The translations under genes and the position numbers were made by a program. Under the pieces are notes generated by a model that worked only from the letters and a program-made list of their open reading frames with translations, was not told where the DNA came from and made no database searches. Positions 56,549 to 59,418 of a stretch of DNA of 64,000 bases are shown here, in pieces. This stretch comes from a bacterium (lineage in GTDB: Bacteria; Patescibacteriota; Minisyncoccia; Phycocordibacterales; Phycocordibacteraceae), in assembly GCA_037200965.1 (NCBI GenBank), contig JBBCGK010000001.1, positions 416,001-480,000 of the forward strand, in the 5' to 3' direction. Each line of letters begins with the position of its first letter. The first letter of the stretch is position 1.

Positions 56549-56585
56549 AGTTGCACAACCTCCTTTTTACGAACGATCCTGCAGG
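56549..56585 (+). repeat. 37-bp direct repeat, copy 1 (left boundary of the cassette)
   Basis: AGTTGCACAACCTCCTTTTTACGAACGATCCTGCAGG, identical to 58765..58801. Confidence 0.8.
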
Positions 56586-56594
56586 TTAAAAGCC

Positions 56595-56903
56595 GTGACT
56601 GATTTTCATCGAAAGCACGGCTACGACGTGGGGACCGGGAACATGGCGGTCATGTCGCTCAGAATTGGACTACTCATAGAAGAACTGGGTGAACTCCACG
56701 CCGTGGTTTCAAAGGGTGTTGGCGACATTTCAGAGGAACACGCAGACCTCTTGTATCTACTTCTTGGAAACTGCGTCACGCTTGGTATTGATATAGAAAC
56801 TGCTTTCTTTGCAAAACATGCCATTAACATGCGGAGGGAAGCCAAGGTAGTGAGGGGGAACCGCCGTGTATCGGATTGGTCCCATGAAAAATCTCAGGAA
56901 TGA
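56595..56903 (+). CDS. small MazG-like nucleoside-triphosphate pyrophosphohydrolase (MazZ-like)
   Basis: GTG start; 102 aa with MazG motifs LIEELGELHAVV and EEHADLLYLLLGNC; 4-bp overlap with the next gene; low GC. Confidence 0.65.
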   Translation: MTDFHRKHGYDVGTGNMAVMSLRIGLLIEELGELHAVVSKGVGDISEEHADLLYLLLGNCVTLGIDIETAFFAKHAINMRREAKVVRGNRRVSDWSHEKSQE

Positions 56904-57931
56904 AAGCTACAGTCATCATCGGTGCGCAGTATGGCAGCGAAGGAAAAGGTAAGATTGCAGCTTATCTTTCAGATGAGTTCGCTCGTGCAGTTCGAACTGG
57001 CGGGCCAAACTCGGGGCATACCGTCGAGCGCAATGGCACGTTCTATCAAGTTCGAGCGGTCCCTAGTGCCTTCGTGAACCAACAATGTCGCCTCGCGATT
57101 GGTGCCGGGGCCATAATAAACACTGCCGTACTATTAGGAGAATTAACGGCATGTGGTATTGTCGAGGGGCGTTTGATAGTTGACCCTCAGGCTGTCATAA
57201 TTGATGAAGAATATCAAAATTCGGAACTAGATTTAATCAGTTCGATTTCGTCCACCGGACAAGGCGTTGGTGCAGCAATCGCAGCTAAGGTCTTACGTCG
57301 GAAAGTAACTCTCGCAAGAGACGTGCCCGAGTTGCGGCCACTGCTTGCCGATGTTGCTGGCACGATCAATTCCGAACTCCAACAAGGCCTAGCTGTAATG
57401 ATTGAGGGGTCGCAAGGATTTTTCTTGAGTTTGCATCATGGTTACTATCCGTTTGTAACAGGCAGGGAAACGACCGCAAGTTCATTTTGCGCCGAAGTAG
57501 GAATCGGTCCCAAAGATGTGGGTCAAGTGATTGGAGTTCTCCGCACCCACCCGATTAGAGTTGGCGGCCCTTCGGGACCTCTTCAAGACGAAATCGATTG
57601 GCAGACCGTCACCGCCGAGTCGGGCTACCCAACACCGCTGTTAGAGATAACTACCGTTACCAAACGAATTCGACGCGTCGGGAGGTTCTCAATGGCCGAA
57701 GCTAAACGATCTTTGATGATCAATTCGGCGACCCAAATTGCTTTAAACTTCGTCGACTACTTGGACCATGCAAACTTTGGACTTAGAAGCTACACCGCAC
57801 TGACTGCTTCAACAAAAAAATTCATCGACGCACTAGAGACACAAACGGGAGTTCCCGTTTCGCTGGTGGGCACGGGGCCCCGTAACAGCGATATGATAGA
57901 CTTACGACGCGAAAAGAACCTCCCCCATTAG
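56900..57931 (+). CDS. short adenylosuccinate-synthetase-family enzyme (PurA-like; candidate PurZ-like 2-aminoadenylosuccinate synthetase)
   Basis: 343 aa. VIIGAQYGSEGKGK (the PurA P-loop GDEGKGK but with Asp->Ser); GGPNSGHTV (GGxNAGHT); IEGSQGFFLSLHHGYYPFVTGRET (GAQG...YPYVTS); ITTVTKRIRRVGRF (TTGRRRR-GW). Confidence 0.6.
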   Translation: MKATVIIGAQYGSEGKGKIAAYLSDEFARAVRTGGPNSGHTVERNGTFYQVRAVPSAFVNQQCRLAIGAGAIINTAVLLGELTACGIVEGRLIVDPQAVIIDEEYQNSELDLISSISSTGQGVGAAIAAKVLRRKVTLARDVPELRPLLADVAGTINSELQQGLAVMIEGSQGFFLSLHHGYYPFVTGRETTASSFCAEVGIGPKDVGQVIGVLRTHPIRVGGPSGPLQDEIDWQTVTAESGYPTPLLEITTVTKRIRRVGRFSMAEAKRSLMINSATQIALNFVDYLDHANFGLRSYTALTASTKKFIDALETQTGVPVSLVGTGPRNSDMIDLRREKNLPH

Positions 57932-57939
57932 ATACCAGC

Positions 57940-58692
57940 ATGAAAAACCAATACTTTGGCGACTTGAGCGACTATAAGAAGTACGGTTTGCTGCGCACAC
58001 TTTCGATTGAGGGTGAGTGCTCGCTCACTGTGTGTTGGATGCTGACGCGAGATGATCAAAGTACCGACGGGCGGCATACAACTTATTTGGCGGACGTAAG
58101 AGAATGGCGCAACCATGAGCCGTTGGTATTTGATCTACTCGCGGACGCAGTCTTCAAAAATTCCCGTAATCTCGAAATAGTTGAAAAGTCCGGACTAATA
58201 CCGAACTCAAACTACTTTCGTGAGGAAATCGGCGATGCTCCCTCCCAACGGGAAGCTTTTTTTGCCCGATTGGCAGATGAAGCCCGCAATTCTGATATTG
58301 TGTTCTTGGACCCCGACAACGGCCTTGAAGTGAAGTCAGTCCCCTATGGCTCCAAGGGAGCACATAAGTACATTTATCGGTCTGAAATCGAAAAGTTATC
58401 TCGGAATGGACTTTCAATCTTGCTGTATCAACATTTTGGTCGGAAAGAACGGTCTGAGTTTATCCGAGCTATTGCATTGAAACTCATCGATTGGCTGAAT
58501 GTGGAGGAAGTATTTTCACTTCGGACGACGCATACCGTATTTTTTCTTGTGCCGAAAGCTGCCCACAGGTCGCGAATAGATCGATCCCTCCAGGCAGTAA
58601 ATAGACAATGGGGAGATAAGATCTTTATCGAGATACACTCTAAGGAGTCTGTATCAACGGTTACAACGAAAAATCAGTTAGACCTACTCTAA
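57940..58692 (+). CDS. hypothetical protein, third gene of the cassette
   Basis: 250 aa: MKNQYFGDLSDYKKYGLLRTL...IVFLDPDNGLEV...SILLYQHFGR...; no motif I recognise; low GC. Confidence 0.55.
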   Translation: MKNQYFGDLSDYKKYGLLRTLSIEGECSLTVCWMLTRDDQSTDGRHTTYLADVREWRNHEPLVFDLLADAVFKNSRNLEIVEKSGLIPNSNYFREEIGDAPSQREAFFARLADEARNSDIVFLDPDNGLEVKSVPYGSKGAHKYIYRSEIEKLSRNGLSILLYQHFGRKERSEFIRAIALKLIDWLNVEEVFSLRTTHTVFFLVPKAAHRSRIDRSLQAVNRQWGDKIFIEIHSKESVSTVTTKNQLDLL

Positions 58693-58755
58693 GTAAGTGA
58701 GCAACATGGATATTGGAAAGGAGCCTGACTTCGCCTCGGATGCCTACTTTGATAA

Positions 58756-59418
58756 TCCGCAACAAGTTGCACAACCTCCTTTTTACGAACGATCCTGCAG
58801 GACGATATCCACAAATCACTGCTGCGCAGCGCGGGCCTCGCGCATCTCTCGGCGGATGAGATTGGGGACTTGAGGGACTTGGCAGCGCATGAGCTACGGA
58901 ATGAGACCGCGGACCGCGGTGGTCTCATGGCGGGATTGCGACTGCGCCTGCAACAATGCGACACACGGCTATCACGCCTTACAGACGCGCTCCTCGACCA
59001 CCTCATCGAAAAGCAGGAATACGAAGCCAAGAAGGCCGCGCTCCTGGGCGAGCGGCGCGAACTGCTAGACAAACTGGAAAGCCCGGAGGCTTCGCGTCAA
59101 CCCGCCGACGGCGTGCTGCAAGCATTGGAACTGCCAGATGTCGTGGAAACACGCTACGAAATGGCTTTGCCGGACCAACGGCGCCGCATTGCGTCTGCAA
59201 TCGCTTGGAACCTAACTGGTAGCGGAAAAGAGGCCGTACCTGAGCTGAAATCTCCGTACCGGGAGATCGTACAGTGGCGTCTTTCCAATCCGGTGCGCCG
59301 TAACGGGGAGCGATCGGAACCTGACATAAAGCTGCTATACGAAGCGCTCAAAGAAGTCTGCCGGCGAGAAGACAAGCCGCCGCAACGTCCCCAACGTCCT
59401 GATGTCTCCGGCATATAA
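58756..59418 (+). pseudogene. N-terminally truncated recombinase-like ORF (C-terminal coiled-coil region resembling large serine recombinases); no catalytic domain
   Basis: The frame is open from 58756 (through the repeat), but the first usable start is the TTG at 58870. ...RLSRLTDALLDHLIEKQEYEAKKAALLGERRELLDKLESPE...DQRRRIASAIAWNLTG... matches the leucine-rich coiled coil and tail of large serine recombinases. The similarity is from memory, not a search. Confidence 0.35.
58765..58801 (+). repeat. 37-bp direct repeat, copy 2 (right boundary of the cassette)
   Basis: Identical to 56549..56585. Lies inside the open frame that continues into 58870..59418. Confidence 0.8.

Follow-up and report, generated by a model that had tools for sequence, protein, structure and literature searches.

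The window, by which is meant the whole 64,000-nt stretch of DNA analysed here, contains two identical copies of a 37-bp direct repeat, AGTTGCACAACCTCCTTTTTACGAACGATCCTGCAGG, at 56549..56585 and 58765..58801 on the + strand, the first of which is host sequence. The repeat is exactly 37 bp, because the adjoining bases differ on either side. No third copy with three or fewer mismatches was found, nor was one generated in 100 shuffles. Three open reading frames are located between the repeats, at 56595..56903, 56900..57931, and 57940..58692, of which the first two overlap by ATGA and the last two are separated by 8 nt. The GC content over 56586-58764 is 0.486, with values of 0.44–0.51 in 400-nt windows, as against 0.56–0.64 in the flanks and 0.57 in the window overall. 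These features, together with the neighbouring genes (tatD, rpsF-ssb-rpsR, a recombinase-like fragment, and a TraD/VirD4-like ATPase), are as described in the initial annotation. Cas1-Cas2 integration duplicates a repeat, but a CRISPR-type origin of the 37-bp sequence was set aside in view of an insert of 2.2 kb and no more than two copies.

The left flank contains tatD (55718..56533, - strand; PF01026, E=6.8e-63), a host gene divergent from the cassette. Following the second repeat is the C-terminal remnant of a large serine recombinase (58802..59418, + strand), which matches the phrog_95 integrase profile at positions 459-549 of 651 (E=3.7e-4) and has a reading frame that stays open across the repeat when the reconstructed empty site is translated. 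The 437-aa TraD/VirD4-like coupling ATPase at 59402..60715 (+ strand; PF10412, E=3.5e-9) is part of a decayed mobile element in the right flank. The rRNA genes of the host contig are interrupted and unlinked, as is the style in CPR.

A second copy of the cassette is present in a 20.8 kb stretch (L007) read from a 4.0-Mb contig of the same NCBI assembly as the window. Fragment X, the 2,180 nt at 56586..58765 (+ strand; GC 0.486), is 100% identical to L007 8647-10826, with zero differences both by blastn and by base-by-base comparison; its final base is common to repeat copy 2. The L007 sequence is part of an operon that encodes, in order, a nucleotide kinase-MazG fusion, a PurA-like protein, an RlmJ-fold protein, and a cytochrome P450 (297, 343, 250, and 402 aa). 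Fragment X takes in the fusion gene from codon 193 onwards and the P450 gene up to and including codon 20. The cassette is the middle piece of a complete four-gene mobile-element operon, and it has no promoter-like site. Within the donor island, which contains an integrase, AlpA, a relaxase, a TrwB-like protein, and a serine recombinase, with a tRNA at its border, the operon has a GC content of 0.47–0.51 compared to 0.55–0.66 around it. The view that the cassette is foreign DNA is upheld. Judging from rRNA architecture and contig sizes, the 4.0-Mb and 0.96-Mb contigs are likely to belong to different organisms.

A relationship between the mobile remnant in the right flank and the donor island was also considered and rejected, since the two ATPases are only 25.5% identical (437 aa against the 695-aa TrwB-like protein of L007). 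Likewise, the recombinase fragment beside the cassette has no similarity to the recombinase of the donor island.

The ORF at 56595..56903 (+ strand) encodes a MazG/PRA-PH-like all-alpha NTP pyrophosphatase domain (PF01503, E=1e-6), which scores 29.5 bits against a cut-off of 21.3, while PF03819 at 17.8 bits is under its cut-off of 22. The EExxE...ExxD metal-binding motif is retained as LIEELGE...EEHAD. What had been taken for a small MazG gene does contain a MazG-type domain, but it is not a separate gene; it represents residues 196-297 of the 297-aa kinase-MazG fusion, cut by the insertion, with the kinase domain and the native start gone. The intact fusion, at L007 8071-8964, has AAA_18/cytidylate-kinase-like and PRA-PH domains. 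At the other end of the cassette, the first 20 codons of the P450 gene (58706..58765, + strand) are cut by repeat copy 2, and MDIGKEPDFASDAYFDNPQQ is the start of the 402-aa P450 of L007, in which the ExxR and FGGGAHSCPG motifs are present. This gene, missing from the initial annotation, belongs to the operon and is truncated in the window copy.

The donor stretch of 20.8 kb does not contain the 37-mer, and the repeats therefore look like a target duplication and not like att sites. Fragment X has no terminal inverted repeats, and no microhomology greater than 1 nt is found at its ends. It is probable that the cassette, 2,180 bp from the interior of the four-gene operon, was captured recently by a small CPR-like genome with duplication of a 37-bp target and is present there as a silent relic, the intact operon belonging to a widespread cellular PurZ-type family. 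The donor would be the integrative island of the co-occurring 4.0-Mb genome, in which the operon is intact, and the site of capture would lie between tatD and the decayed serine-recombinase gene of the small genome. There, filling-in of a staggered break around the captured linear fragment may have duplicated 37 bp of host sequence. A target duplication of 37 bp is unusually long, and we know of no precedent for one in this host, which counts against this reading.

In the initial annotation, the insertion was ascribed to site-specific recombination, in which case the 37-bp repeats would be the attL and attR of a mobile cassette. This is very unlikely. In its favour, the direct repeats are perfect, the repeat lies within a recombinase pseudogene, and small tyrosine-recombinase genes adjoin the operon in L007 and in L017/L018. 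Yet no 37-mer that could serve as attP is present in the 20.8 kb around the donor copy, both ends of the cassette are inside coding sequences, no recombinase is encoded between the repeats, and the repeat was not found in either GTDB representative genomes (37-mer) or JGI metagenomes (24-nt core). These same searches gave no empty site, and no contig representing one was found by exact look-up of the TatD and TraD-like proteins.

The identity of X in two contigs of one assembly could also have come about through a chimeric graph path by which part of the 4.0-Mb genome was placed in the small one. Only one record has the right junction and the 437-aa ATPase in assembled form, and short-read contigs break at the repeat. 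Such an artefact is nevertheless most improbable, as the left junction from tatD through the repeat to the cassette is recovered both in L009, an independent NCBI assembly, and in L010, a Logan contig of another run. In L009, tatD, the repeat, and X are on one contig, with 2 SNPs within X and 0 in 8.6 kb of flank, and in L010, 28 nt of the repeat are joined to X. In addition, real reads alone can supply the junction k-mers that a 37-mer duplicated on either side requires. The same left junction with tatD is found in L009, L021, and L022. Logan contig L011 covers precisely 56586-58765, and contigs break at the predicted branch points. Three other contigs end at 58765, the exact base at which the two contexts diverge, which is indirect support for the right junction. 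Several observations count against the capture of an operon fragment: the right junction is in one assembly only, identity of X is also expected from cross-assembly, no empty site was found, and the ORFs of the window are intact and coupled, with a MazG domain that looks complete.

A scan for sigma-70-type promoters found no promoter-like site upstream of the cassette, although an unrecognised promoter could be outside such a scan. Since both ends cut genes and there is no promoter-like site upstream, the window copy is most likely a silent relic, and its ORFs may still be intact only because the capture was recent. An alternative is that the three genes are a working mini-system, in which MazG would convert dGTP to dGMP and the PurZ-type enzyme would turn this into a succino-adduct, draining or rewiring the guanine deoxynucleotide pool for defence or for salvage in a purine-auxotrophic CPR cell. 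The intact, translationally coupled ORFs, the conserved metal-binding motif of the MazG domain, and the retention of the insertion in two assemblies or samples are in keeping with this, as is the occurrence of a PurZ-type gene with an RlmJ-fold partner in Saccharibacteria and Nanoarchaeota MAGs. It is unlikely, however, in that the cassette has no promoter-like site in front of it and is divergent from the gene upstream, and in that it lacks the kinase domain, the P450, and the native start, a kinase being recurrent in about a third of related operons. Fragment X is 100% identical to the donor, and there has therefore been no time for selection to show. If an operon fragment was captured, it may be the trace of DNA recently transferred into a CPR-like genome, and its 100% identity may reflect the direct uptake of DNA by a CPR episymbiont from the bacterium that hosts it. 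A more modest lesson of the window is that genes which look intact and coupled, even with perfect repeats on either side, can be no more than a silent part of a larger operon.

The second gene of the cassette (56900..57931, + strand) encodes a short adenylosuccinate-synthetase homologue of 343 aa (PF00709, E=6.9e-59; phrog_1211, 244 bits). Its best overall match is the archaeal short PurA (P. horikoshii, PDB 2d7u/5k7x; NF003295), at 235 bits and 43% identity; the two are equally long and have their deletions against bacterial PurA in common. It differs from the archaeal enzyme in having Ser for Asp13, Y for W11, T for G at the position of T262, a 2-residue G-xSG insertion, and NF-x-D-Y in the guanine-binding TxxDK region. 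The Ser at the catalytic Asp13 (E. coli PurA numbering; S14 of phiVC8 PurZ) is within GAQYGSEGKGK, and all 120 of the closest homologues with a recognisable motif have either GSEGKG or GGEGKG. PurZ is the succino-amino-deoxyadenylate synthase with which phages make 2-aminoadenine, a DNA base. Replacement of Asp13 by Ser has been used as a criterion for PurZ (bioRxiv 10.1101/2025.10.22.683976, PMC12884076). Residues F12, T262, F295, and Y298 of phiVC8 PurZ align with Y11, the T of TTVTK, and the F and Y of NFVDY in the window synthetase, which is PurZ-type at 5 of 5 discriminating residues; the PurA proteins of E. coli and P. horikoshii differ from the PurZ type at all four of these positions.

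Scores against existing models fall short of their cut-offs, at 219.3 bits for the NF038379 PurZ model (cut-off 300), 361.8 for NF003295 (just under the equivalog cut-off of 368), and 246.6 for TIGR00184 (cut-off 395.6). The score of the synthetase with archaeal PurA is higher than with PurZ models, a point against the PurZ-type reading. In a neighbour-joining tree with 100 bootstraps and two PurA outgroups only, all Ser/Gly-type sequences, cellular and from 4 phages, form one clade without P. horikoshii PurA (100/100). By its sequence the synthetase appears to be PurZ-type, with predicted substrates and products to match. The Ser13, the four further PurZ residues, and the clade with phage PurZ bear out the earlier statement that the PurA-like protein is not a housekeeping PurA. 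The proposed resemblance to a MazZ-PurZ pair is also supported in part by these residues and by the MazG-like neighbour, for which S-2L MazZ (7ody) is the best MazG-like match in the PDB, although a weak one (E=0.0067).

The third gene (57940..58692, + strand) encodes an RlmJ-fold protein of 250 aa that is a conserved partner of PurZ-type genes. The protein has a class I methyltransferase fold with the helical subdomain of RlmJ. An invariant DPDNG is found where RlmJ has the catalytic DPPY, and the sequence shows no glycine-rich SAM loop. Identity to RlmJ (the 23S rRNA m6A2030 methyltransferase) and to Legionella LPL1258 is 9–10%, and sequence kinship to RlmJ was rejected, the hhalign comparison with E. 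coli RlmJ giving a non-significant probability of 0.3. Fold matches in BFVD are generic methyltransferases. There is no Pfam match and no match in a profile search of PDB sequences; fusion partners of the family have no informative Pfam domains, and an 'Atl1' label given by the source was discarded, with E=0.063 behind it. For this gene, listed as an unknown in the initial annotation, the conserved PurZ-type partner and the RlmJ-like fold are a correction. Elsewhere the family adjoins GIY-YIG or HNH nucleases. A phage origin was rejected, with no match in 50,697 phage records, and among IMG/VR contigs the protein is found in only 7, none of which (0/7) has an adjacent PurZ-type gene.

GTDB species genomes yielded 547 PurZ-type loci in all, which lie in recurrent operons. 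The recurrent partners are kinase, dCTP-deaminase-like, NUDIX, or MazG proteins, and the operons also encode the RlmJ-fold protein or else an RNase H-like exonuclease. A dCTP-deaminase-like gene is present in 63 of 80 related loci and a kinase in about a third. The family ranges over Acidobacteriota, Dehalococcoidia, Halobacteria, Lokiarchaeia, CPR, and DPANN. The four-gene order of L007 is shared by L001 and a Bacteroidota MAG (L024), and by a Pseudonocardiaceae MAG (L086) minus the P450, while a Gammaproteobacteria MAG (L025) has PurZ-type, P450, and RlmJ-fold genes. The upstream regions of ten related operons contain no Rfam family. Tong et al. 2023 (Nat Microbiol) reportedly deals with PurZ0 and its archaeal relatives; leaving aside overlap with that work, no description of a bacterial or archaeal PurZ-type operon family was found.

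In these operons the pyrophosphatase, whether MazG, NUDIX, or dCTP-deaminase/dUTPase-like, may convert (d)GTP to (d)GMP, from which the PurZ-type enzyme and aspartate would give N6-succino-2-amino-(d)AMP. PurB would release the 2-aminoadenine nucleotide, to be re-phosphorylated by the kinase, and the RlmJ-fold protein (or, in other lineages, the RNase H-like exonuclease) and the P450 would act downstream. The biological role would be in defence, DNA modification, or the making of a metabolite. Tentatively, these loci could represent an undescribed, widespread class of operon by which cells and mobile elements make 2-aminoadenine or N6-succino-2-aminoadenine nucleotides, for anti-phage defence through nucleotide conversion or for DNA modification, with the RlmJ-fold protein and the exonuclease as interchangeable downstream modules. 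A cellular nucleotide-rewiring or defence-like system was the alternative reading in the initial annotation, and for the wider family it is a better fit than a phage Z-genome cluster; the window copy, however, is without a promoter-like site and two conserved parts.

Known phage Z-genome clusters encode PurZ with MazZ, DatZ, and DpoZ (S-2L, phiVC8) or PurZ0 with DutZ and DmtZ (Ghobes, Wayne). Like phage PurZ, the window synthetase is short and archaeal-type, with Ser for Asp13 and the other discriminating residues, and a (d)NTP pyrophosphatase is encoded beside it. As in phages, the family of this pyrophosphatase is swapped between cellular operons (PMC8342488, PMC12884076). The window synthetase is only 32–38% identical to PurZ and PurZ0, and unlike PurZ in the phage clusters it has a kinase, an RlmJ-fold protein, and a P450 as partners, on an integrative island or a chromosome rather than in a phage. 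As noted initially, there is no DatZ or DpoZ, and this is true of the window, L007, and L001; DutZ is likewise absent from all three, and DmtZ from this system. Similarity of the cellular dCTP-deaminase-like proteins to the dUTPase-like genes of Ghobes was too weak to be accepted (E >= 3e-4).

A handful of sequences from archaea have served to trace PurZ back to archaeal PurA. The cellular operons could be the reservoir from which phage PurZ arose and, if this is true, contain candidate ancestors of the phage pathway. Natural Z-DNA has been reported only in phages (PMC13128860, 2026). Hundreds of cellular PurZ-type genes in conserved operons with pyrophosphatases and kinases would, if true, shift where Z-nucleotide chemistry occurs, and they point to a nucleotide-based system of defence or DNA modification that may be new and that includes two unknown partner proteins.

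The toyocamycin/sangivamycin enzymes ToyG and ToyF are PurA-like and PurB-like and act on a modified purine nucleotide, and their genes are clustered with those of tailoring enzymes. Similarly, a PurB-like gene is convergent in L001, where a P450 is also encoded. Unlike the toyocamycin pathway, no 7-deazapurine genes were seen, and the Ser13 signature points to a 2-amino purine substrate. The defensive dCTP deaminase is a fusion of a kinase and a dCTP deaminase that acts in nucleotide-depletion defence (bioRxiv 10.1101/2021.04.26.441389; PADLOC PDLC02373). Its kinase region is matched by the kinase domain of the intact L007 fusion (E=1.5e-13), whereas neither the window nor the donor operon has a deaminase-like gene. 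With PADLOC 2.0, the PurZ-type, RlmJ-fold, and MazG proteins have no significant match, and only the kinase of the intact fusion matches the dCTPase model. Several carriers of PurZ-type genes are cultured isolates, including Nitrospira tepida, Paludibaculum fermentans, Granulicella sp. S190, Paenibacillus ginsengihumi, and Tissierella sp. P1, and the cellular PurZ-type question is therefore directly testable.

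The 37-bp repeat occurs exactly twice in the window, at 56549–56585 and 58765–58801, with no near-copies there and no matches in 100 shuffles. The bases adjoining the two copies are unlike, which sets the length of the repeat at exactly 37 bp. Windowed GC dips to 0.44–0.51 between the copies (0.486 overall), against 0.56–0.64 in the flanks and 0.57 for the window. The perfect repeats, the low-GC interior and the three coupled ORFs (56595–56903, 56900–57931 and 57940–58692) described in the initial annotation are all confirmed.

The cassette is part of a larger operon. An exact look-up of the third protein identified copies on two contigs of GCA_037975565.1, the 960-kb contig JBBCBH010010897.1 (the window copy) and a 4.0-Mb contig, of which a 20.8-kb stretch is referred to here as L007. 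The 2,180 nt at 56586–58765, referred to as X, are base-for-base identical to L007 8647–10826, which places X within a complete four-gene operon. The first gene of this operon encodes a 297-aa fusion of a cytidylate/adenylate-kinase-like domain and a PRA-PH/MazG domain, the second the PurA-like protein (343 aa), the third the third protein (250 aa) and the fourth a cytochrome P450 (402 aa) with ExxR and FGGGAHSCPG motifs. X takes in the fusion gene from codon 193 onward and only the first 20 codons of the P450 gene. The small MazG gene seen originally is therefore the surviving C-terminal domain of the kinase-MazG fusion; the MazG-type domain is real, but it is not a whole gene. Likewise, the short ORF 3' of the third gene is a P450 stub. 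The donor operon is also low in GC (0.47–0.51 versus 0.55–0.66 in its flanks) and the island around it carries a tyrosine recombinase, AlpA, a relaxase, a TrwB-like ATPase and a serine recombinase, with a tRNA gene at its end. The tRNA gene at the end of the island and a Ruegeria trans44 sRNA family match, which overlaps the AlpA gene, lie at L007 15014–15278 and 17017–17106. A SET-domain gene is present in L007 at 4639–5721.

Insertion by site-specific recombination had been proposed, which would make the repeats attL and attR. This is not supported by the structure of the junctions: the 37-mer was not found in the 20.8 kb of L007, there is no recombinase gene between the repeats and at most 1 nt is shared at either junction of X. 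Terminal inverted repeats were also sought in X and none was found. When the empty site is reconstructed, the recombinase remnant downstream (58802–59418) has a frame that continues open through the 37-mer, showing the repeat to be host sequence within a decayed recombinase gene. The repeats have the anatomy of a target duplicated on either side of a captured linear fragment, not of attL/attR. A 37-nt staggered break, filled in around the fragment, is the proposed source of the duplicated repeat.

The left junction of the insertion is also present in an independent assembly, GCA_015655515.1, in which tatD, the repeat and X are on one contig. This differs from the window by two SNPs in 10.8 kb, at 57597 and 57739, both of which are inside X; there are none in 8.6 kb of host flank. 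A Logan contig from a different run (L010) has 28 nt of the repeat joined to X. Contigs on the tatD side end within the repeat. The GCA_015655515.1 contig, L010 and a second Logan contig all end at 58765, the base at which the paths from X to the repeat and from X to the P450 gene part. The right junction, from X through the repeat to the recombinase remnant, has been assembled only once. No empty site was identified using the 37-mer in GTDB representatives or a 24-nt core in JGI metagenomes.

The rRNA genes of the window are all on the minus strand, at 17773–20084, 32753–32860 and 33882–38226. The 16S gene is interrupted by approximately 730 nt of inserted sequence and, together with its tRNA-Ile, is separated from the 23S and 5S genes by more than 13 kb. 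The rRNA scores are low (775 and 386 bits for the 16S). At 4,345 nt the 23S gene exceeds its model of 2,925 nt, and it has a group I intron at 34304–34520. Interrupted and unlinked rRNA genes are typical of the CPR/Patescibacteria. The window contig is 960 kb, and the one bearing the donor-like copy is 4.0 Mb and has an alphaproteobacterial-type sRNA match. The two contigs are probably from different organisms, and X would therefore be a very recent transfer between them. The identity of X across contigs of 0.96 Mb and 4.0 Mb may reflect gene conversion between the copies or a recent capture of DNA, in which case the source would be a co-resident bacterium, possibly the host. Beyond the mobile remnant, from 60851–63332 onward, are an ATP-grasp (RimK-like) gene and an S1/P1 nuclease gene, with an Endonuclease_NS gene just outside the window; nucleases of this secreted type would suit a cell that scavenges DNA. 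A second low-GC patch (0.45–0.51) is found directly after recA at 51200–52200, containing a 246-aa ORF (51409–52149) with no recorded Pfam match.

It is unlikely that the three genes are a working mini-system in this genome. Their ORFs are intact, but with 100% identity to the donor this is uninformative as to selection. The window copy lacks the native start, the kinase domain and the P450. No σ70-like promoter was found upstream of the cassette, where the neighbouring tatD is divergent. The window copy is most likely a silent relic.

The best overall match of the PurA-like protein is the short archaeal PurA of P. horikoshii (235 bits), and it scores 361.8 against NF003295 (cut-off 368). Phage PurZ is more distant (149 bits for phiVC8, identity 32–38%), with a score of 219 against NF038379 (cut-off 300). 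At the residues published as separating PurZ from PurA, however, the protein is PurZ-type. The Asp13 of PurA is Ser (GSEGKGK) and the W11 of PurA is Tyr. At T262 of phiVC8 PurZ there is Thr (in TTVTK), which in PurA is Gly (P. horikoshii) or Ala (E. coli). The RVG-AG loop has a two-residue G-xSG insertion not present in PurA. At F295 and Y298 of phiVC8 PurZ the sequence is NF-x-D-Y, where PurA has no Phe or Tyr (TKLDV in E. coli, TMLDK in P. horikoshii). Among its closest database relatives, all 120 in which the motif can be recognised have Ser or Gly at position 13. In a neighbour-joining tree with two PurA outgroups only, the cellular and phage Ser/Gly-type sequences form one clade without P. 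horikoshii PurA in 100 out of 100 bootstraps. Grouping with housekeeping PurA, which would have counted against the PurZ reading, was therefore not seen.

When one genome per GTDB species was scanned with a sequence pattern, 547 loci with Ser-type relatives emerged, spread over numerous phyla of bacteria and archaea, CPR and DPANN among them. In the best 80 of these 547 loci, the gene adjoining the PurZ-type gene is often dCTP-deaminase-like (63 out of 80) or encodes an RNase_H_2 plus DUF429 protein of approximately 528 aa (39 out of 80). RlmJ-fold proteins, the type to which the third protein belongs, and kinases each adjoin it in 27, a P450 or remote P450 relative in 5, and NUDIX genes in several. 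The RlmJ-fold and RNase H-like proteins do not co-occur in any of the 80, and seem to be two modules that can replace each other in a single system. The kinase-MazG, PurZ-type, RlmJ-fold and P450 arrangement is found again in a JGI contig (L001), with an additional convergent PurB-like gene, and in a Bacteroidota MAG. A Pseudonocardiaceae MAG has the window-type operon without the P450, and a Gammaproteobacteria MAG has PurZ-type, P450 and RlmJ-fold genes. The kinase domain of the fusion matches the kinase region of a defensive dCTP deaminase (E=1.5e-13). One Parvibaculum PurZ-type locus adjoins a CBASS operon; many others are amid ordinary chromosomal genes. Across these operons the PurZ-type core stays constant and the pyrophosphatase family changes, a parallel to the functional convergence that has been described in phage Z clusters (PMC12884076).

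The shared operon logic suggests an order of steps from (d)GTP to a 2-aminoadenine nucleotide. The (d)GTP would be converted to (d)GMP, from which an N6-succino-2-amino nucleotide would be made; a PurB would turn this into the 2-aminoadenine nucleotide, which would then be re-phosphorylated. The pathway might end in depletion of guanine nucleotides, in a nucleotide that is toxic or acts as a signal, in Z within DNA, or in a metabolite tailored by the P450. In the searchable literature, natural Z-DNA is reported from phages only (PMC13128860) and only four archaeal Ser/Gly-type sequences are mentioned (PMC12884076). This literature contained nothing relevant linking PurZ or adenylosuccinate synthetase to defence, with some overlap with published work possible.

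The third protein has no match in Pfam, NCBIfam, PHROGs or PADLOC, yet its family comprises 4,387 clusters at 50% identity. It has in common with RlmJ an N-terminal G-[ND]-xx-D-xx-K-[HY] pattern, but differs in having an invariant DPDNG at the catalytic DPPY site of RlmJ and no evident glycine-rich SAM loop. A profile comparison with RlmJ was not significant. Outside PurZ contexts, homologues in some loci are near Fic and AbiEii genes. On the Ensifer adhaerens plasmid pCTYH.Ch1_3 a homologue is flanked by two GIY-YIG nuclease genes (L105 5014–7319), and in another locus (L012 4820–8193) one lies between Schlafen/AlbA_2 and HNH_5 genes, beside a SMODS/PLD (CBASS-like) cluster. These nuclease-gene surroundings hint at a role on DNA. 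The family is rare among viruses. Three virus- or plasmid-like JGI/ENA contigs of 74–107 kb with small co-oriented ORFs (L004, L005 and L006) have a distant homologue whose gene immediately precedes a PurZ-type gene; the latter shares 57% identity with that of the window. L005 and L006 differ from L004 in having an extra inserted RRXRR/HNH endonuclease gene.
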